Assembly (NCBI GenBank): GCA_951406725.2
Contig: OX597816.1
Location: forward strand, 7,936,001-8,000,000
Direction of reading: 5' to 3'
Length of the DNA stretch: 64,000 bases
Origin: Octopus vulgaris
Taxonomy: Eukaryota
Part shown: positions 10,992-62,447 of the stretch, piece after piece
Position numbering within the stretch: the stretch's first letter is position 1
Layout of the letters: each line of letters starts with the position of its first letter
The notes under the pieces: model-generated
The model's database searches: none
The model's input: the letters and a program-made list of their open reading frames with translations, nothing else
What the model was told of the DNA's origin: nothing
Made by a program: the position numbers and the translations under genes

Positions 10992-11698
10992 ACTTTTTCA
11001 CTTCCTGAGCGTTATACTAATACATCTGTTTGTTGTCTACACCACCTATCTTCGTCTTTTGTTTTTTTTGTGAATTCTCTCTATCATCATCATCATCAAC
11101 ATTGTTTAGCGTCCGCTTTCCATGCTAGCATGGGTTGGACATATATGTGTGTGTGTGTATTTGTGTGTCTGTGTTTGTCCCCTCCCCCACTGTCATTTGA
11201 CAACTAATGTTGGTGTGTTTACGTCCCTGTAACTTAGTGGTTTGGCAGAAGAGATCGATAAACTAAGTACTAGACTTACAAAGAATAAGTCCTGGGGTCG
11301 ATTTGTTCAACTAAAAGGTGGTGCTCCAGCATGGCTGTAGTCAAATGACTGAAACAAGTAAAAGAACACACATTATTTTTAGTGCCATCTCAGTTAGTGC
11401 CGAGTCTGTTGTGGCCAGGAAATTCTCCAGCCTGCTTCATGGGACTTAAACAAATAACAAAAGAAACGGACCCTTTAGTCAAGCATTCCTTTTCTCAACC
11501 TGAATGCCTCTGTAGCTCTGTTGGTTTCTGGATTCACACAAGATGGTTGTGTGAAAATAAATCTTCACTGCAAATATTGAATGATAGCCCCTTCCCCCTA
11601 ATTTCTTTACTGTCAATATTTGTTTTCCTGTTGGAAGACATACTCGGATGAGTTCTTTGAATGGTGAGCTAAAGTTTTTTTAAATAGTCGTTCAACAC

Positions 11699-11848
11699 AT
11701 TATTTACATTCGACAGATATTTGACCTCAGCTTGTTTGTTGTTAACACTACACCATTTGCCCACAGGCATATGGCGTAGTGGTTAAGAGCATGGGCTCCT
11801 AACCCCAAGATTCCGAGTTCAATTCCAAGCTGTGACCTGAATAATAAA

Positions 11849-11896
<48 letters not shown>

Positions 11897-12012
11897 TTTC
11901 AACTAGCAATAACTATGCCTCGAATTTACCTCATTGGCCATGGTACTGCCTCTGCGCAAATAATAATGATAATAATAATACCACCACCAACAACAACAAC
12001 AGCAGCAGCAGC

Positions 12013-12044
<32 letters not shown>

Positions 12045-12206
12045 ATACCTTAGGAATGAGAACCCAGGTCTGAAATTTCCCCAAGACACCTGATGAAGGC
12101 TAGAGGGTACATCAGCCGAAATGTGTTAACAACAAACAAGATGAGGAGAAATATCCGTCAAATGTAAATAATGTACATAATTCCTCATCTCTTAAATATA
12201 GAACTG
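11699..12206 (+). mobile_element. Composite tRNA-head + hammerhead Penelope-type non-autonomous element (family 1)
   Basis: Inverted short arm 11699-11748, tRNA-like head 11766-11840 (A box TGGCGTAGTGG, B box GAGTTCAATTCC), (AAT)n/(CAA)n linker, full arm 12043-12206 with hammerhead core at 12085-12127. 13-bp TSD agtc(g/a)ttcaacac at 11686-11698 and 12207-12219. Confidence 0.8.
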
Positions 12207-12286
12207 AGTCATTCAACACTTATGTCTAGTTTTTAATTTCAATTTTTGTCAGTTTGAATAAATGTACCATTTTACTTTCTATCCAG

Positions 12287-21915: not shown

Positions 21916-23271
21916 CTATTTTATTTGTTCCATAGCTTCTGTTTGATTTCTGATGCCGTGGACAGTCAGAAATGCTGGTAACACTCCATCAAAGCATGAT
22001 CTTCTACGTCTTAGTGGTTACGGAATGTCTGGCAACTGACTTGGTAAACACCCACAAAATTATTAACCATTGTACCGGTGGCACGTAAAAAGCACCAACC
22101 GATCGTGGCTGTTGCAAGTCTCACCTGGCACGTTAAAAGCACCAACCAATCGTGGCTGTTGCAAGTCTCGCCTGGCACCTGTGCTGGTGGCACGTAAAAA
22201 GCACCCACTACACTCACGGAGTGGTTGGCGTTAGGAAGGGCATCCAGAAACACTGCCAGATCAGACTGGAGCCTGGTGCAGCCTCCTGGCTTCCCAGACC
22301 CTGGTTAAACCGTCCAACCCATGATAGCATGGAAAACGGACGTTAAATGATGATGATGATGATGATGATGTGCCAACAACCACCTTTTTGAATTCCAGGT
22401 GTGATATGTCCCACATTATGATGACATAATCATCGTCTGCATGATTGGCCCATACGGCGTACCTCGCCAACTGACACTGTTTGTTGTGTCTGTCCACTAT
22501 TTATCAGTAGTGGAACAGCTCACTTCTCACTTGGGAGTGTCCGCCACAACAAGGTGTCAAACACACACGGGCATGTCTACAAAGTCAGTAAACAGCTCAG
22601 CCCCCATGACTTTCAGAAACATTTTTTCAAACTCAGAGTTGCTGAAGCATGGAATAAACTACCTGCATCAGTTGTTAGTTGCCAAAACATTGCATCCTTT
22701 AAAACCTCCATGCCTCCTGAAATTCGCCAACACTACACCTGATATCCACCCACCTCCAAACGCATGCACACATGTATATCATGACTCATACACTGGCCAC
22801 TTTCCTGACTTTTGTACATAATTCTATGTACTGTACATGCACCTCTGGTGAGTTGTAGTGCACCTGAGCACTACACAATAATTTTATTTATTATTATTAT
22901 TACTATTTATTTAATAATTTCTCATTTATGGTACTGCTGCTGTACAATTACTACCACAGTTTGTGATGAGACAGAGAGGATGTTGTTGTTGGCTGATACC
23001 ATCTGGGTTAAATTTAATTGGAAATACAATTTATACAAGAGAACACCTTGGTGGCAAAAACTACCTTTGTGCAACTCACAGTCCATGAATTTCACCACTT
23101 CATATTGCACCCCTGCATTCTCATCTGTCCCGAAGATTTCCCCCAACTTTGCCGAATTTGATGAAGCCCACTCGTACCTAGTTTTTCACCACTAAAACAT
23201 TGTTCCTCAGTCAGTCTCCATCTTTTTTCAGCTCCTCTCTACAACACCCACCATCAGCCTTCTGTAGCATT

Positions 23272-23700
23272 CCACCAGGCCGTCGTGCCTGTTCACCAGG
23301 CCTTCGTGCCTGTCCACCAGGCCGTCGTGCCTATCTACCAGGCCGTCGTGCCTGTCTACCAGGCCGTCGTGGCCGTCGTGCCTGTCCACCAGGCTGTCGT
23401 GCCTGTCCACCCGGCCGTCATGCCTGTCCACCCGGCTGTCGTGCCTGTCCACCCGGCCGTCATGCCTGTCCACCCGGCCGTCATGCCTGTCTACCAGGCC
23501 ATCGTGCCTGTCCACCAGGCCGTCATGCCTGTCCACCTGGCCATCATGCCTGTCTATCAGACCATTGTGCCTGTCCACCAGGCCGTCATGCCTGTCCACC
23601 TGACCGTCATGCCTGTCCACCCGGCCGTCATGCCTGTCTACCAGGCCATTGTGCCTGTCCACCAGGCTGTCGTTCCTGTCCAATCCATCATGCCTGTCTT
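23272..23700. repeat. 21-bp GC-rich minisatellite (about 20 units)
   Basis: Unit ccacc(a/c)ggccgtc(g/a)tgcctgt. Open in several frames (VDRHDGL heptads on -). Confidence 0.9.
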
Positions 23701-23944
23701 CCAAGCTATCATATCTTCCCTAAACTTTTGCAGCTGATCCACAAAGCCATGTCTGTCATAAATATATTTTTACAGAGTTGTTTTGCCTTTTAGCTGGATG
23801 CATCTGATCTCTAACATTGTCATTTCGAACTTTTCTACAATTTTCTGTTTACTAATTTTCACTAAACTAAAAAAAAAAAATCATTCTTACTCTGTCGGTA
23901 TTTTCTATATTGCAAAGTGATCACTCTTTAATTCCTGTTTGCAG

Positions 23945-36889: not shown

Positions 36890-37757
36890 GCCCAAGATTC
36901 CGAGTTCGATTCCAAGCAGTGACCTGGATAATAATAATAATAATAATAATAATAATAGCCATGTGTTGAGAGGGATTCTTTGGGGTTTGAATAATTCACC
37001 CTTGGAAACATGAGTGTTTCATTCAACATCCTTAACTCTTATTCAGGGACCTTTTTAATGGGATGGGCTACTTGACCAGAAGAAAATTCTAACTGGGCCC
37101 CACCTGCAAGGTCATGTGCTGTTTATCTTGATATGAGATCACCATGTCGCACACATATGGTTGTGATGCATGTGCCTGGTGTACCCTTATCAGACGGGTA
37201 GTCATGATGGGTATACTGGGTTTCGTATATTTTACCCCAGTGTCACTTTGATGGCATGCACTGCTCTCTCACACGCAATAATAATAATAATAATAATAAT
37301 AACATCTAAAAATAATCCGAATCGTGGCTGATGCCAGCGCTGCCTTGACTGGCTTCCGTGTCAGTGGCATGTAAAAAGCACCATCCGAATCGTGGTCGAA
37401 GCCAGTGCCGCCTCGACTGGCTTCCGTGCAGGTGGCACGTAAATTGCACCAATCCGGAGTGGTTGGCATTAGGAAGGGCATCCAGCTGTAGAAACATTGC
37501 CAGATAAGACCGGAGCCTGGTGCAGCCTTCTGGCTTCCCAGATCCCCGGTCGAACCGTCCAACCCATGCTAGCATGGAGAATGGACATTAAACGATGATG
37601 ATGATGATGATGATGAAAAATACCTTAGGAATGAGAACCCAACTTTGAAATTTCCCCAAGACACCTGATGAAGGCTGGAAGGTATATCAGCTGAAACGTG
37701 TTAACAACAAACAAGATGAGGGCAAATATCCATCAAATGTAAATAATGTAAATAACG
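36890..37757 (+). mobile_element. Family 1 tRNA-head + hammerhead element, interrupted by two later insertions
   Basis: 3' half of the tRNA-like head (cccaagattccgagttcgattccaagcagtgacct) and (AAT)n, then arm 37616-37757 with hammerhead core at 37660-37702. Inserts at about 36958-37300 and 37313-37615 (RTE tail). Confidence 0.6.
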
Positions 37758-44523: not shown

Positions 44524-46369
44524 GCGATACCTGTGCCGGTGGCATGTAAAATCCACCATCTGTACATGGCTGATGCCAGCGCCACCTCGACTGGCTTCCG
44601 TGCCGGTGGCACGTAAAAAGCACCCACTACACTCACGGAGTGGTTGGCATTAGGAAGGGCATCCAGCTGTAGAAACATTGCCAGATAAGACTGGAGCCTG
44701 GTGCAGCCTCCTGGCTTCCCAGACCCCGGTCGAACTGTCCAACCCGTGCAAGCGCGGAAAACGGACGTTAAACGATGATGATGATGATGACTTCAGCTAA
44801 TGAATGGCATTATTAAGAGGGTGAACAAATACCATCATTATTTAATGTCTGAGAGTTTGTTTGAGGAAGTGGTTAAGTGAGGGTAGGTGAGAGGGAGTGA
44901 GTGCAAAAGAATCGGTGAGAGGGGGAGTGAGTGAGTGAGAGAGAAAGTGAGTGACTGAGTGCAAAAGAATCAGCTGGGTTGGTATCGATACCAACCCAGC
45001 TGAAACTGCCTCTGGCTCTGTAGTAAAAATGTCTTGTTTTCATAAGTTTTGAATCAAAATCTTCCACCAAACCTCAGTCACAATTTAAGTTCCTAACACT
45101 AGCTGAATGATAACTAAGTTATTTTACTAAATTCTTTAATTGAAAGAAACACAAAGCATCTCAGAATAAATACAGTAAGGAAAGGGTTAGACAGAAACTT
45201 GGAGGAGAAACATGCATCATAGCAGCAAAAAAGCGAAGCATAAACTAGAGAATAACAGTATTGGCAAGAAGAGTAACCTCTCCTGGCCCTGTGATAGATA
45301 CACTACACCTAGAATATGCCCTTTACTAACCAGGAACAAGAGATAACTACTAAATACCTGATAAAGAAAAGAGGCAAAGATACCAACACATCTCCATGTC
45401 AGTTCTGCTCTACCAGGGTGGAAGATATCCACATCAACAGCAGCTGCCCCAAAATGTCTACAAGATACTCTCTGTCTTTGAGATAAGGTATAGTTTCCAA
45501 GACTATTTACAACCCTATCCATAGCTGTGTTGGTGGTTCAAATACCTGGTTGATAACATCAGAGGAAGGCTTGGGCTATCAAGGTCATTGGAGCTGTGGC
45601 TTTGAATATGAAAGTGAGGTGAAGATCTTTGCTCATCTATCTATCATGGATCTAAGGCCTAGTTTCTCGATGTTTGCAGAAGAATTTCCTTTACAAAACC
45701 AGTGCAGCTGGGACCTAAGATGTCAGTGTCAGAAGAGGGTTTGGGACAACTTTATCAGTGCAATTAGGGCCTATGATAACAATGATAGGGAAGGGCTCAG
45801 GTCATCCTTATCAGATAGAGCTGAGGCTCAATTTATCACTGTTAATTGAGGGGCTTAAGTCATATATATAGCTATGGAGCTGGGGACCAGGTAGGGTCTA
45901 GATTGCCTATGATAGTGGAAACCTTAAGCCATCTTTTGGGGGATTGGTGAACTATATTGGTGGAGCTGGTTCAAAAGTTGTCAGAAGAGCAATTCTGCCA
46001 TCCTTATTTTATGGAGCTAGTTTCTAGATTTTAATGTAAGTAGAGAGTTTAGGTCACATATAATGATGGAGCTGGGTCTATGTCAGTGGATAGCAGAAGT
46101 CTTCTATATCAATGGTGCTTGAATCTTGGTTTCTTTTTAGGTTGAGTGCTTGATGTCTGCTACAAATTTTTTTTGAATCCGTTATTAATTTAGTCCTGTA
46201 TTTAAGAGATTAGGAATTATGTACATTATTTACATTTGATGGATATTTGTCCTCATCTTGTTTGTTGTTAACACAATGTTTCGGCTGATATACCCTCCAG
46301 CCTTCATCAGGTGTCTTGGGGAAATTTCAAACCTGGGTTCTCATCCCTAAGGTATTTTTTGATATTATT

Positions 46370-49300
46370 CATCATCATCATCATCATCATCATCGTTTAA
46401 CGTCCGCTTTCCATGCTAGCATGGGTTGGACGGTTCAACTGGGGTCTGGGGAGCCCGAAGGCTGCACCAGGCCAGTCAGATCTGGCAGTGTTTCTACAGC
46501 TGGATGCCCTTCCTAACGCCAACCACTCCGAGAGTGTAGTGGGTGATTTTATGTGCCACTGACACAGGTGCCAGACGAGGCTGGCGAACGGCCACGCTCG
46601 GATGGCGTTTTTTCTGTGCCACTGACACAGGTGCCAGACGAGGCTGGCAGACGGCCACGCTCGGATGGTGCTTTTTATGTGCCACCGACACAGGTGCCAG
46701 ACAAGGCTGGCAGACGGCCACGCTCGAATGGTGTTTTTTATGTGCGACCGACACAGGTGCCAGACGAGGCTGGCAGACGGCCACGCTCGGATGATGTTTT
46801 TTATGTGCCACCGACACAGGTGCCAGACGAGGCTGGCGAACGGCCACGATCGGATGGTGTTTGTTACGTGCCCACAGCACGGAGGCCAGTCGATGCGGTA
46901 CTGGCTACGGCCACGTTTGGATGGTTTTCTTGTGTGCCACGTGCCACCGGCACTGGCACCACAAAGATACAAATTCCATTGATGTTCATCTATTTGATTT
47001 GGTTTGATTTTCACTTGCCTCAACAGGTCTTCACAAGTATCACAAGAAGGAAGGTATGCACAGGTGGACTGACTACGTCCCAGGTAGGGCCCACGGGTTA
47101 TGGCTTCACTAGTCTTGCCGGGTCTTCTCACGCACAGCATACTTCCATAGGTCTCGGTCTCTAGTCATTTCCATGGTGAGACCTAAAGTTTGAAGGTCGT
47201 GCTTCACCACCTCGTCCCAGGTTTTCCTGGGTCTACCTCTTCCACGGGTTCCCTCAACTGCTAGGGATTGGCACTTTCTCACACACCTATCTTCATCCAT
47301 TCTCGCCACATGACCATACCAGCGCAATCGTCTCTCTTGCACACCACAACTGATGCTTCTTAGGTACAACATTTCTCACAAGGTACTAACGCTCTGTCGA
47401 GTATGTACACTGACGTTACACATCCATCGGAGCATACTTACTTCATTCCTCACAAGCTTACACATGTCTTCAGCAGTCACGGCCCATGTTTCACTGCCAT
47501 GTAGCATGGCAGTTCGTACACATGCATCATACAGTCTGCCTTTTACTCTGAGCGAGAGGCCTTTAGTCACCAGCAGAGGTAAGAGCTCCCTAAACTTTGC
47601 CCAGGCTATTCTTATTCTAGCAGTTACACTTTCAGCGCACCCACTCCCACTACTGACTTGGTCACCTAGATAACGGAAGCTATCAACTACTTCTAGTTTT
47701 TGCCCCTGGAAAGTGACGGAAGTTGTTTTCTGCAGATTTTTGGAGGTCAATGCTCCCGAGCATCTGCCACATACAAAAACTATCTTCCCAGTTTGCCTAC
47801 CTTTGACATTGCTGCACCTCTTATGTGTCCATAGCTCACACTGGGTACATCTTATAGAGTTTCTACCTACACCTTTTCTACAGATTGAGCAGGGCCATCT
47901 TCCTGAAGACATTTGTGGATTGTCTACCTTTCTACTTATTAGTACTTTGGTTTTAGCTAGGTTGACTCTAAGGCCCCTCGATTCTAAACCCTCCTTCCAC
48001 ACCTGGAACTTCTCCTCCAGTTCTGATAGTGACTCAGCAATTAGAGCAAGGTCGTCAGCATAGAGGAGCTCCCAGGGGCAACCTGTCTTGAATTCCTCCG
48101 CAATTGCCTGGAGGACTATGATAAATAGGAGGGGGCTGAGTACTGAACCCTGGTGGACCCCAACCTCTACTTTGAATTCTTCTGTGTACATGTTGCCAAC
48201 CCTAACCTTACTTACGGCATCTCTGTACATGGCTTGCACAGCCCTCACCAGCCATTCATCTATCCCTAGTTTCCTCATTGACCACCAGATGAGGGATCGG
48301 GGGACCCTATCAAAGGCTTTCTCCATGTCAACGAAAGCCAGGTACGGGGGCTTATCTTTGGCTAGGTATTTCTCCTGCAGCTGCCTTACCAGGAATATAG
48401 CATCAGTGGTGCTTTTCCCTGGCACGAACCCAAACTGCATCTCATCTAAACTAACTCTCTCTCTAATTAGTTGGGCTATGACCCTCTCTGTAACCTTCAT
48501 TACCTGATCCAACAGCTTGATACCTCTGTAATTATTTGTATCTAGGGCATCACCTTTACCTTTGTAGCAGTTGACTAGTATGCTGCTACACCAGTCATTG
48601 GGTATGACTCCTTCGTGTATCACCTGGTTGACTATACGGGTGACTAGGTTATAGCCGACACTGCCAGATAGTTTGAGCATCTCTGCAGTAATTCCTGATG
48701 GGCCTGGGGCTTTCCCTGTCTTCATGCTTCTAATTGCCTTAGCTACCACGGAACTATCAACTCGGATAGCTGGTCCCTCTGTTGGGTCAACATTCGGCAG
48801 ACTCTCTTTATCCCATTCATTTTCTTTATTCAGCAACCTTTCATAGTGGCATCTCCAAACCTCTCTCTTTGCATCCTCATTTAGTGCAAGTGAACCATCA
48901 TCCATGCAAACTCACTTCTCTCCTACCACATCACGATTCTCTCTCACACACTGTCTTGCAACACGAAATACCTCAAGTCTTTCATCCTCATGGCTCAGAA
49001 CATTGGCAAATTTTTTCTTATCCGCTTCCCCTCTGGCTAAATAAACCTGTCTCCTAGCTTCCCTTCTGGCTGTCTGATACAATTCCCTGCTACCACCGTT
49101 CTTCCAGTCCTTCCGAGCCTGTCTCTTTTGTCTAATAGCCCTGTCAACCACAGTGTTCCACCACCATGTTACTCTGGGTCGAGATGGTACTTTTCTCCAT
49201 CCACAGATCTGGTCAGTGGCTGTCAGCAGATTGTCCCGTAGAAATCTCCAGTTGTCTTCCACATTAAGTGAAGCTATATCCCCTTCTATTTCGTCAAAGG

Positions 49301-50103
49301 CTTCGAGTAGTATGTCTCTAAATCTCTGTCCATTTGCAGGATCTTTAAGCTTCCAGACCCTTCTCCTCCAAGCTGGTCTTCTTCTGGGCGACCATTTAGC
49401 TCTGATCCTGAAGTCGCTAACTACTAATCTATGTTGAGGAGTACATTCTTCGCTTGGAAAGGTTTTGGCATTTATAATCAGCCCTCTTTCCCTTTTTCTG
49501 GCAAGGATGTAGTCAATTTGGCTGGTGTGTCTGCCAGAATGGTAGGTGACTAGGTGAGAGGTGGGTTTCCTGAAGTTGGTATTGCAGACCATAAGGTCAT
49601 TTGCATCGCAGAACTCCAGCAGCCTGGTTCCCTCCTCATTACGAGAGCCAAAACCGTAGCCTCCATGGACGCCATGGAAGCCCCCGACATGCCGTCCAAC
49701 ATGTCCATTGAAATCACCTGCCACGAAGAGAAGGTCACTGTCATTTGTCAACGAGGTAGTCCGCAATAGGGTGTCATAGAATTGGTCTTTTTGTCCTTCC
49801 GGTAGCCCTGGTTGAGGGGCATATGCCGAGATGATGGTAGCTGTCCTATGGTGAAGGACTAATCTAATTTTAATTACTCTGTCACTTACTCTGACTACCT
49901 CGATTACCTTATCTACCCATTTCTCCGCAAGAAGTATACCCACGCCCCCGACCCCGTCAGTGTTCCCTGCCCAGAAAATCTTGTACCTGTGTTCCTTGCC
50001 TGTGAGGAGCCTAGCGGAACCTCCTCTCCACCTTACTTCCTGGATGCAGCATACATCCACACGTCTCCGTTCAAGCAGCTCTACAATCTCTCCAGACCTA
50101 CCT
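46370..50103 (-). mobile_element. Young RTE-clade LINE, slightly 5'-truncated (APE + RT + PHD-like finger + 3' UTR)
   Basis: One reading frame 50103-47109 with only two TGA stops (48912, 47376). APE motifs CIQE, AYAP, GDFNGH, IDYIL; RT motifs QFGF, FVDMEKAFD, GVHQGSVLSP, YADD; tail RLRWYGHV, GRGRPRKTW; (GAT)n 3' end. Confidence 0.95.
46553..46870. repeat. 63-bp tandem repeat (5 units) in the RTE 3' UTR
   Basis: gtgccac.gacacaggtgccagacgaggctggc...ggatgg.g.tttttat repeated at 46553, 46616, 46679, 46742, 46805. Confidence 0.9.
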
Positions 50104-50326
50104 TATTTATTATTATTCAGGTCACTGCCTGGAATCGAACTCAGAATCTTGGGGTTAGTAGCCCGCACTATTAATCACTAATAATATCGAAAAATATCTG
50201 AGGAATGAGAACTCGGGTTCAAAATTTCCTCAAGACACCTGATGAAGGCTGGAAGGTATATCAGCCGAAATGTTGTGTTAACAACAAACATGATGAGGAC
50301 AAATATCCGTCAAATGTAAATAATGT

Positions 50327-50770
50327 GTTATTAATTTGTTCATTCTTGATGGTTGTTGAAGAATTAGGAGGTATCTTTTTGCAATATTGATGACGACGTG
50401 ATTTCTTGGGTTGTGGGTGATGACAAAAGGAATGTTTATGAGTTCATTTTTATTTCTGTGTGTTTGTTCTCCTCTGAGGTTTGTAGTTGGGATGTTTTCT
50501 GCTTTGGTGATTGCTGTGTTAATTAAACTACTGGGCTATTCTTGTTTTTTTTAGAAATATTTCCAATTTATTTTGCCATATCAAAGGGTTCGTTTCTTTT
50601 GGTATGGGAGAAAGGAATGAAAGTTCAAATATTTGGTGTCTGTAGGTTTGTAGGAGAAATCTGTTTTTATGGTTGTTATTTTCTTTAATTGGAAGTATGT
50701 CTAAAAATGGTAATTCCTTTGTGTGTTGTTCCATGGCGAATTTTTATTGAGGTATGTAAATTATTTAAAA
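50327..50770 (-). pseudogene. Decayed Penelope-like element RT/thumb fragment
   Basis: LNNLHTSIK/FAMEQHTKELPFLDIL, IKTDFSYKPTDTKYLNFHS, LINTAITKAENIP, IPFVITHNP are PLE RT C-terminal motifs. It appears to continue beyond the TSD at about 46120-46180 (SRHQALNLKR). Confidence 0.75.
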
Positions 50771-55717: not shown

Positions 55718-55952
55718 AATTCCATTTTCTGCCAGCTCTCTCTCTCTCTCTCTCATATAAATAAATAAAATTCAGACTTAATGATGATATAAATAAAAGA
55801 GTTGAAAGTTCAAGTTGAGAAGAAACCAAACTGGAATTCTTTAGAATCACAATCAACCGTTGGATCATCCTGAAAATGTTAAAAGAGCTGCTGCCTCGTC
55901 AATATCCTTGCTTAAAGATTTATCCCAGTCATACCTCAACTTCCTATGATGT

Positions 55953-56305
55953 TACAGTTCTATATTTAAGAGATGAGGAATTATGTATATCATTTACATT
56001 TGATAGATATTTGTCCTCATCATGTTTGTTGTTAACATAACATTTCGGCTGGTATACCCTCAAGCCTTCATCAGGTGTCTTGGGGAAATTTCAAACCTGG
56101 GTTCTCATTCCTAAGGTATTTTTCGATTCCAGGCAGTGACCTGAATGATAATAATAAATATCAATATTGAAAAATACCTTAGGAATGAGAACCCAGGTTC
56201 CAAATTTCTCCAAGACACCTGATGAAGGCTTCAGGGTATATCAGCCGAAATGTTGTGTTAACAACAAACAAGATGAGGACAAATATCCGTCAAATGTAAA
56301 TAATG
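55953..56305. mobile_element. Family 1 element: back-to-back hammerhead arms with tRNA-head remnant spacer
   Basis: Arms 55953-56126 (-) and 56168-56305 (+), hammerheads at 56034-56079 and 56214-56259, spacer cgattccaggcagtgacctgaat. 12-bp TSD ttcctatgatgt at 55941-55952 and 56306-56317. Confidence 0.85.
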
Positions 56306-57459
56306 TTCCTATGATGTATCTATCGCAAACTGAAACATTATTAGAAGGGTTCTTTTTAAGAAGGCGAGTTCTGGATTATTAACTTTTCTATAACATTTAA
56401 TATAAAATATTTGAATGTCTTTCACTGGTTGGAAAGTATTGGACAATTTGTCCAAGAAAATGATACGAAAACAAAATAGATTTTGGTGGTTACTTTCATC
56501 AAAAAATGCAAAAAATGTTATTGGCTGGGAGTATATTGGATATGGACTGGTTTACAAGGAACAATTCCTTAAAGATTTAACTTGCTTTAGAAATGGATTT
56601 ATTAAAGATAAACCTCAATATTTTAGCAGCTCCTATAAGTTTGGCAAATTGAAATTCAGAAATTCTTTACCTGAAATTACTTCATTTTGTTAGAAGGCAC
56701 CAAAAAGTCAACTGTACCGAAAATAATAAGCTACACTAGAGCTTTCAGGCCCAGAGAAATATTTTAAAAAGGAATAAGAAAAGCTGATACATGTGTTGGG
56801 AATGGTATTTTGCTTGGTCCCAGAAGAGAAATAAAATTAAGACTTTTTTAATATTAATGTAGAATCATGATCTTTTAAGTTTAGCATTGGTAAAAAAAAT
56901 TCCTTGCCCCAGAATAAATGGGGAACCCGCATTAAGATGGATAAAATATAAATTAGTTTATGAAAATAGGGAACATCCCCATGGGGACGTTCAGTCAGCA
57001 ATGAGGATTCATAAATAGAAAGGAAGAGAAAAGAAAATATTAAAATGCTTCCAATTCTATGACCAGACACAATATTCCATTTGAATAAGGCAACAAAGAG
57101 TGGAATGGTTGTCTTGTATTAAACAATAAAAGAATTCTGACAATAAAACAATACATGTTGTATTGAACCATTCCTACAAAAGAAATAAAAAGTTTTTGCT
57201 TTTTTTTTATCTCGTAGGAATTTATGGAAAAATAATCGTTTGTCACAAAATAATAAATAAAACACCTTCAATTAATTAAATATTAATTAATTCATGAAAA
57301 AATAAAACAAAAATTGTAAAATATTTTCTGTAATGATGAAGTGTTTTCTTAGGAAGTTGGTTCAATAAGTTATTGAAACAATTATAGAAATTAACGAAGA
57401 CAAGTCTTATCACAATGTTTTTTTTTCACTCAAAAGATTTGAGGAATAAATTTTTTGGT

Positions 57460-62092: not shown

Positions 62093-62447
62093 CATAATTC
62101 ACCCTGTCACTGCCTACAGGCATAGTATAGTGGATAAGGATGTTGGTCAATGCAGTGTAGTCACCTAGATGTCCAGAGTTCAATCCCAGGCACCAAAATA
62201 ATTCACAAAAAAAAATTTTTTTAAATGCCATGAAATGCAGAGAGTGGAATGAAAACAGCACAAACTCCGTGGATCAAATAAAGTGTTAGGTTTGAAATTC
62301 CGATACAACAAAAGAGTTCAAGACAAGACACTTCAAGAAGGTTGGAGCATACAACAGCTGGAATGTAGTGAAAGCAGCAGTGGAGATGAGGACACCAATC
62401 GAACTAAGGTAAACAGTAAATACATAATACAAATTCTTAGCGGGGCG

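Follow-up and report, generated by a model that had tools for sequence, protein, structure and literature searches.

The hammerhead-bearing repeats found in a 64,000-nucleotide stretch of the Octopus vulgaris genome (the window) belong to a Penelope/Poseidon-type EN+ Penelope-like element (PLE), whose placement as Poseidon-type is suggested by domain order, sequence motifs and a match to an Anolis sagrei reverse transcriptase (RT), and whose pseudo-LTR (pLTR) holds what, judged from sequence, is a tRNA-derived promoter. We hold with even confidence that the window copies are solo pLTR insertions of this autonomous element, likely made by its own enzyme in copying the 5' end of an RNA that was likely started by Pol III at the tRNA-derived head. 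The initial annotation had described them as a non-coding family moved in trans; this finds no support, as the same head, linker and arm constitute the pLTR of a coding element, with the arm encoding the N-terminus of its ORF.

The organization of the coding element was reconstructed from loci (L numbers) recovered with its different parts. Two of 30 loci anchored on the arm run upstream of the head into a translation resembling the endonuclease end of PLEs, and in a search with the ORF end the head directly follows that end in 29 of 30 loci, with the arm next in 27 (three of these rows duplicate other loci). A walk upstream from the ORF end recovered coding sequence for an RT and a GIY-YIG-type domain. 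The RT domain matches PF00078 and is 39% identical over 457 aa to the A. sagrei protein, and the ORF's C-terminal end is 35% identical (E 1e-29) to a protein carrying PF01541 (P0097); a direct Pfam search of the decayed C-terminal piece gave no match. At the other end, the tail continues in frame into the ORF N-terminus in L099, and among 30 loci anchored on the N-terminus three (L213, L226, L240) begin with the head and run through arm and tail into the ORF N-terminus, while L238 is a tandem junction in which ORF end, head and arm are followed by an ORF start. Of eight 5' copies that were translated, five keep one reading frame between an ATG upstream of the hammerhead and the end of the tail, and the other three are frameshifted there. 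As the head, linker and arm flank the ORF on both sides and the arm is in frame with it, this unit constitutes the pLTR, with the arm serving as the start of the ORF. The element thus reads head, AAT linker, hammerhead arm (the ORF start), RT and GIY-YIG ORF, stop, about 30 nt, and again head, linker and arm, with pseudo-LTRs from partial tandems that overlap the ORF start, a hallmark of PLEs. All copies of the coding element that we saw are broken. An autonomous PLE with the same pLTR, the partner which the initial annotation had suggested seeking, is accordingly present, with the pLTR at both ORF ends; the suspicion that the repeat might prove an ordinary PLE pLTR was right as to its being a PLE pLTR and wrong as to its being ordinary, because tRNA-derived A and B boxes lie inside it. 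A search of the PDB returned no PLE structure. Relatives of the ORF protein (P0001-P0030) are 58-72% identical to it.

Direct reading of the window and a search with the arm (12045-12206 as query) bore out the four copies at the places where they had been annotated (Table 1). The search gave seven arm matches, namely the query and six at 88-93%, including the truncated 11697-11748 arm, and an eighth, weak one of 43 nt at 62324. The TSDs of the three bounded copies read as they had been described, and in all three one arm is short and the other tailed; for copy 4 an inverted partner was looked for and none was found. The U4 snRNA 5' fragment in the linker of copy 1 had been overlooked in its first description. 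The LINE inside copy 2 has open stretches of 395 and 511 aa and is presumably of the RTE type, a label taken from its RT motif. A further arm-like stretch at 62324-62394, a weak (70%) match with a degraded core, perhaps derives from an older related PLE family.

Table 1. Parts of the four pLTR copies in the window
Feature	Position	Strand	Remarks
Copy 1, left TSD	11686..11698	+	13 bp, one mismatch to its partner at 12207-12219
Copy 1, inverted arm	11699..11751	-	short 3' end, no tail; 5'-truncated ahead of the hammerhead core
Copy 1, tRNA-derived head	11757..11838	+	A box 11772-11782; B box 11817-11826 (one CpG-type change)
Copy 1, near-palindrome at 5' end of head	11757-11769	+	5'-end hotspot of the family
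Copy 1, pLTR linker	11841..12042	+	(AAT)n/(AAC)n
U4 snRNA 5' fragment in copy 1 linker	11892-11963	-	unrelated; Rfam scan
Copy 1, tailed arm	12043..12206	+	first ~50 codons of the PLE ORF; first in-frame ATG 12056-12058; tail about 12175-12206
Copy 1, minimal type I hammerhead	12085-12127	+	decayed
Copy 1, right TSD	12207..12219	+	
Copy 4, broken	36891..37755	+	3' half of head 36891-36932; short arm 37614-37755
Copy 4, repeats splitting the AAT tract	36958-37277, about 37300-37610		two unrelated repeats
Copy 4, hammerhead	37660-37702	+	
Copy 2, left TSD	46181-46191		11 bp; right TSD 50327-50337
Copy 2, inverted tailed arm	46192..46366	-	
Copy 2, AAT tract with later insertions	46367..50100	-	LINE and a second repeat, foreign to the element
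Copy 2, head	50112..50180	-	belongs to the tailed arm
Copy 2, short arm	50183..50326	+	hammerhead 50234-50279
Copy 3, left TSD	55941-55952		12 bp; right TSD 56306-56317
Copy 3, inverted tailed arm	55953..56127	-	
Copy 3, B-box remnant of head	56122-56149	+	then a short AAT linker
Copy 3, head remnant and short arm	56122..56305	+	hammerhead 56214-56259

The head aligns best with the host tRNA-Arg(TCG) (z=7.0), with Ala and Arg(TCT) close behind (z 6.4-6.8) among the six amino-acid types sampled. ARAGORN found no tRNA in the window and Rfam, run on the window and on locus L018, no match to a hammerhead or tRNA model, so that both motifs are identified here by direct reading and by the alignment of the head to host tRNAs. 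The head travels with the arm, as had been proposed: 27 of 30 loci anchored on the head have the arm downstream and two more have it inverted upstream, and in a random sample nine of the ten head-bearing loci also carry it, the exception (L291) being a head-to-head pair without arms. We rejected an independent SINE inserted into AAT tracts as the source of the head, the arm being linked to it in 29 of 30 head-anchored loci. In L036, as in other ORF-linked copies, 3' UTR sequence immediately before the head resembles a short inverted copy of its opening bases, perhaps the scar of a head-to-head event that captured the head.

The mode of insertion is legible from the inverted pairs. Among the 76 examined, 52 combine a long with a short arm, three are short and short, one is long and long, and 20 have unclassable or mis-paired ends, which makes long plus short the arrangement of 52 of the 56 classable pairs. 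A flanking direct repeat of at least 10 bp, with a mode of 12 bp, borders 41 of these 52 as against 12 of 150 shuffled partners; TSDs of inverted pairs are thus more frequent than chance. Each strand has its own fixed site at which insertions end, the two sites lying about 30 nt apart, and the insertions are bordered by TSDs of ~12 bp; the Penelope-type insertion chemistry that had been claimed from inverted pLTRs, a one-sided tail and a TSD is in agreement with this. Many of the loci anchored on the N-terminus (L212-L240) pass from a pLTR through a short beginning of the ORF before switching to another pLTR. Of the 21 ends tabulated there, nine are located in an AC-rich stretch 228-267 nt beyond the tail; these may reflect template jumps to a third start site.

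Column counts over about 130 arms give a hammerhead core with 5-bp stems I and II and an ACGT palindrome as the majority state, and the CUGANGA and GAAA cores, stems I and II and the palindromic positions 15.2-16.2 by which minimal type I hammerheads are recognized are all there. The MFE fold of one real copy contains both stems, I and II; the cofold of two copies gave no dimeric hammerhead, a pseudoknotted form. At the CpG of ACGT, C outnumbers T by 75 to 35 and G outnumbers A by 90 to 21, which supports ACGT as the ancestral palindrome of stem III, and the variants ATGT and ACAT are attributable to CpG decay. The core GGCTG..CAGCC first ascribed to the arms was sound except that not every arm has it: copy 1 reads GGCTA, the plus arm of copy 3 GGCTT and copy 4 CAGCT. 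Copies 1 and 4 are without 3 nt at the cleavage junction, and none of the six core-bearing arms in the window, which are decayed, keeps the full majority core. The arm shares with minimal type I hammerheads the conserved core, a short stem I, a bulged A before stem II, the palindromic 15.2-16.2, the lack of a real stem III and the dual copies on opposite strands 100-700 bp apart, and differs from them in the U at the cleavage position (GUU triplet) and the 5-bp stem II. Hammerheads with a U at this position are slower. Minimal hammerheads, inverted pLTRs and tails are already known in PLEs (accessible sections of PMC8557442 and PMC4209133; the other papers cited below are likewise taken for the sections of them that were accessible). 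The related protein P0007, compared with window 12090-12120, begins MKA...PKR, from an ATG inside the hammerhead core as in the Anolis element PAc; in the octopus family this ATG is shifted by one base from the reading frame, and another ATG, lying upstream, serves instead.

In PAc the RT-EN protein makes nicks in both strands of an AT-rich DNA, and reverse transcription starts internally in the RNA, which defines the tail, while the hammerhead needs protein and is dispensable for insertion (PMC11167929). By extension, the octopus RT-EN would nick both strands of an AT-rich target, and reverse transcription would begin inside the RNA at two sites, on a transcript that Pol III would have started at the head. 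Priming within the 5' pLTR would then run off the transcript's 5' end after about 280 nt and give the short, SINE-looking copies, and priming within the 3' pLTR of a long RNA would give the ORF-bearing, randomly truncated ones; the near-palindromic 5' end may help two cDNAs to join head to head. The hammerhead cut would fall downstream of the start codon, as in PAc. By this reasoning a regulatory role of the hammerhead appears more likely than a requirement for it in insertion, because inserted copies span the cut site.

Evenly spaced stretches totalling 1.2 Mb contained 16 loci of the family, which corresponds to about 37,000 per genome (95% interval 21,000-61,000). Ten of these carry the head and four any ORF sequence, so that short copies outnumber ORF-bearing ones. 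All 30 loci returned by a 40%-identical PLE query were of the octopus family, which thus dominates among families of its type here; in the random sample, pieces of other PLE families (L176, L318, L324, L331) have 25-30% protein identity to the queries. The excess of short copies could also speak for the SINE proposed in the initial annotation, in which solo copies or 3' pLTRs would be transcribed by Pol III into short RNAs, and the copying of these in trans by the Penelope RT would account for most of the short copies; the size of the unit (about 280 nt), its A and B boxes and the lack of a shared T4 agree with that. In Adineta, moreover, the pLTR alone sufficed to mobilise a host gene in trans (PMC3846280), and animal retrozymes have been argued to be non-autonomous PLE derivatives (bioRxiv 10.64898/2026.07.22.740005). 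We nevertheless regard such an origin as quite unlikely, as three lines of evidence run against it. Firstly, 83 solo and 64 ORF-linked head units, the solo ones being partly picked by similarity to the window copies, agree in their majority base at every position except two, of which one matches the search query and the other lies within a 9-nt repeat; non-CpG variants occur in both classes, at 5-9% divergence from the majority. With majority bases and variants common to both, no separate SINE lineage is apparent among these units, and no lineage-specific fixed differences set solo copies apart. Copying of short transcripts in trans from 3' pLTRs or solo copies may be compatible with this lack of diagnostic bases. 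Secondly, inserts in the linker are independent events that daughter copies do not inherit, since eight in-element copies of an AAT-tailed repeat need six changes on the tree and the U4 piece occurs in the linker of one of 30 loci. Thirdly, PAc needs RNA extending to ORF +172, beyond its RT start sites at 111-118, which solo copies lack (PMC11167929). Measured against SINEs as a class, the unit is under 700 bp and has a tRNA-derived head with internal A and B boxes; it is not distinct from its autonomous partner, the whole unit being the pLTR of the latter with no diagnostic bases, and in place of a 3' simple-repeat tail and a LINE partner it has an internal microsatellite, 3' ends at two fixed sites and a PLE as partner.

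Taking one unit per locus and ignoring upstream sequence in the choice, 31 of 35 units reach +5 of the tRNA-like region, and 27 of these 31 stop within -17..+5 of the tRNA-like +1 as compared to about 5% expected from the rate in 27 ORF truncations; the peak is at -8..-6, at the near-palindrome. Pol III starts a few bases ahead of tRNA +1. The pile-up is consistent with such a start, and also with palindromic pLTR ends like those of Adineta, which have no tRNA. The latter leads to a different account, in which the head would be a passenger, acquired by the pLTR in a single capture of a tRNA-derived SINE head, with transcription by Pol II as for other PLEs and the sharp 5' boundary produced by the palindrome through self-priming or cDNA-end annealing. 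Adineta PLEs have palindromes at their pLTR 5' ends and inverted junctions (PMC3846280), and many octopus copies are head-to-head and centred on the palindrome; yet copies without an inverted head (L063, L071, L081, L086, L240) also begin at -9..-6, and the majority sequence of the head keeps an intact A box and an intact B box at the proper spacing. Furthermore, the promoter of D. virilis Penelope is LINE-like (PMC2377424) and in the octopus arm a pyrimidine run is followed by an AG immediately ahead of stem I, comparable to a D. virilis intron end (PMC4209133), whereas no GT..AG joint was found among the 15 contig joints listed of 25. The absence of a shared T4 in 2.6 kb likewise goes against a passenger, while the somewhat scarce AATAAA (one shared site as against about 2.5-3 expected) goes with it. 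Altogether we deem a passenger head rather unlikely.

The T runs bear on Pol III transcription of the element more widely. Along the ORF no run of at least four T is common to more than 11% of the copies covering it (47 runs in 115 kb), and in the pLTR such runs occur at any site in at most seven of 134 copies. Control LINE ORFs of the same genome and T content have 34 such runs in 14 kb and four fragments of other PLE families 11 in 3.6 kb, these controls being few families, within which L331 (729 nt) has none and the window LINE alone only three in 2.7 kb. Codon shuffling gave a probability of zero T4 runs of 0.003-0.083 over eight related, non-independent copies, and of 0.02-0.74 per copy with new mutations counted; G4 runs are also unshared, with shuffle probabilities of mostly 0.08-0.9 and below 0.01 for one copy. 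In nine of 29 sampled host tRNA genes the first downstream run is exactly T4. Codon bias for Phe, taken as further possible evidence that T is avoided, did not differ from that of the LINE controls, and a metagenome scan for relatives gave nine distant loci with T4 at expected levels. The lack of a shared T4 in the 2.6-kb sense strand is suggestive of Pol III transcription, and together with the 5'-end pile-up it suggests that Pol III may transcribe the family, perhaps including its coding RNA. Contigs of four sequencing runs, whose RNA status is a guess, cover parts of the pLTR and ORF in three organisms, with strand, starts and level unreadable. It is possible, as a tentative extension of these sequence patterns, that a coding Penelope switched to Pol III, such that a captured tRNA promoter in the pLTR would drive a 2.6-kb terminator-free RNA serving as both message and template, and SINE-like copies would fall off its 5' end as a by-product.

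The octopus element shares with the EN+ PLEs PAc of Anolis (PMC11167929), Pen2a of Adineta (PMC3846280) and Penelope of D. virilis (PMC2377424) a single ORF with RT and C-terminal GIY-YIG, a pLTR that overlaps the ORF start and contains a hammerhead, an inverted 5' pLTR, a tail of ~30 nt on one side, a TSD and a palindrome at the pLTR 5' end. It differs from them in the tRNA-derived A/B-box head and the AAT linker. The PLE promoters described in the literature accessible to us are Pol II-like, either TATA/Inr or LINE-like and internal. The word tRNA is absent from the main text of PMC3846280 and PMC4209133, no tRNA-headed PLE appears in the accessible sections of PMC5786205, PMC8967140, PMC4758252, PMC13343379 and PMC2377424, and a search of the open literature, outside which lie Repbase, Dfam, subscription papers and the SINEBase supplements, found no description of one. 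A Pol III promoter derived from a small RNA inside a terminal repeat is shared by the TRIMp3 elements Cassandra, Helenus and Ajax (Kojima 2024, PMC10886601); these are non-autonomous LTR elements, whose autonomous partners are argued there to need Pol II, while in octopus the tRNA-derived part lies in the repeat of an autonomous coding element. TRIMp3 elements have direct LTRs along with a PBS and a PPT, no coding capacity and a 4-5-bp TSD, and the octopus family has inverted pLTRs, a ~12-bp TSD and a coding partner with the same repeat.

Short length, a tRNA head and tens of thousands of copies are features in common with tRNA-derived SINEs (PMC3531059). The octopus unit differs from these in its PLE-derived 3' part, its internal microsatellite, its 3' ends at fixed RT start sites and its insertion as inverted pairs. 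Octopus SINEs named OK, OR1 and OR2 were reportedly described by Ohshima and Okada in 1994. The unit, compared without the sequences of OK and OR1, may equal one of these; OR2 is a CORE SINE (PMC4758252). It is possible that PLE end-repeats are among the octopus repeats that have been annotated as tRNA-SINEs.

The schistosome Sm-alpha is a short type I hammerhead repeat linked to PLEs. The animal non-LTR retrozymes are likewise short type I hammerhead repeats linked to PLEs, and form head-to-tail arrays yielding circular RNA, whereas the octopus family consists of dispersed copies, most of them inverted, and belongs to a coding element (PMC7761336; bioRxiv 10.64898/2026.07.22.740005); the accessible sections of the latter contain neither "tRNA" nor "octopus". 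All 16 random loci are dispersed single or inverted copies, and only short partial tandems were seen among the loci anchored on the N-terminus.

In the usual view autonomous retroelements use Pol II and SINEs Pol III. The processivity of Pol III has been argued to bar autonomous elements from using it (PMC10886601). A direct test of this rule is offered by the octopus element, which is coding, has an intact tRNA promoter at its 5' boundary and lacks T4 over 2.6 kb. Should Pol III make the coding RNA, the question arises of how an uncapped RNA gets translated, and a Pol III-driven Penelope would, if true, show the birth of a SINE from the promoter of an autonomous element itself. Should the polymerase be Pol II, the family would still offer natural insertions by the tens of thousands that fit the PAc model of two start sites and two strands.

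The pLTR linker is a hotspot for microsatellite-targeting elements. The window segment 36958-37277, also seen in L008, L011, L013, L227 and L236, represents the 3' part of an abundant AAT-tailed repeat of greater length, which has repeatedly entered AAT tracts, the linker among them; the ~320-nt stretch found in several linkers was for this reason rejected as the body of a subfamily. LINE coding sequence lies in the AAT linker of L052 (1728-3209) and of L010 (upstream of 1497), and looks to us like R4/Dong. U4 snRNA 5' fragments (about nt 3-75), as in copy 1 and in L341-L369, end alike and run into (ATT)n, and constitute a dispersed class of retrocopies with 126 candidates at first look; full-length U4 genes are present at L347-L351 and L362. 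As U4 itself reads ...GAAAACTATT at the fragment end, priming by microhomology on ATT tracts is likely. The U4 piece was rejected as inherited cargo on account of its rarity in linkers. The window is also rich in copies of other abundant repeats and contains tandem arrays of a 21-nt unit at 23215-23748 and a 63-nt unit at 46484-46959.
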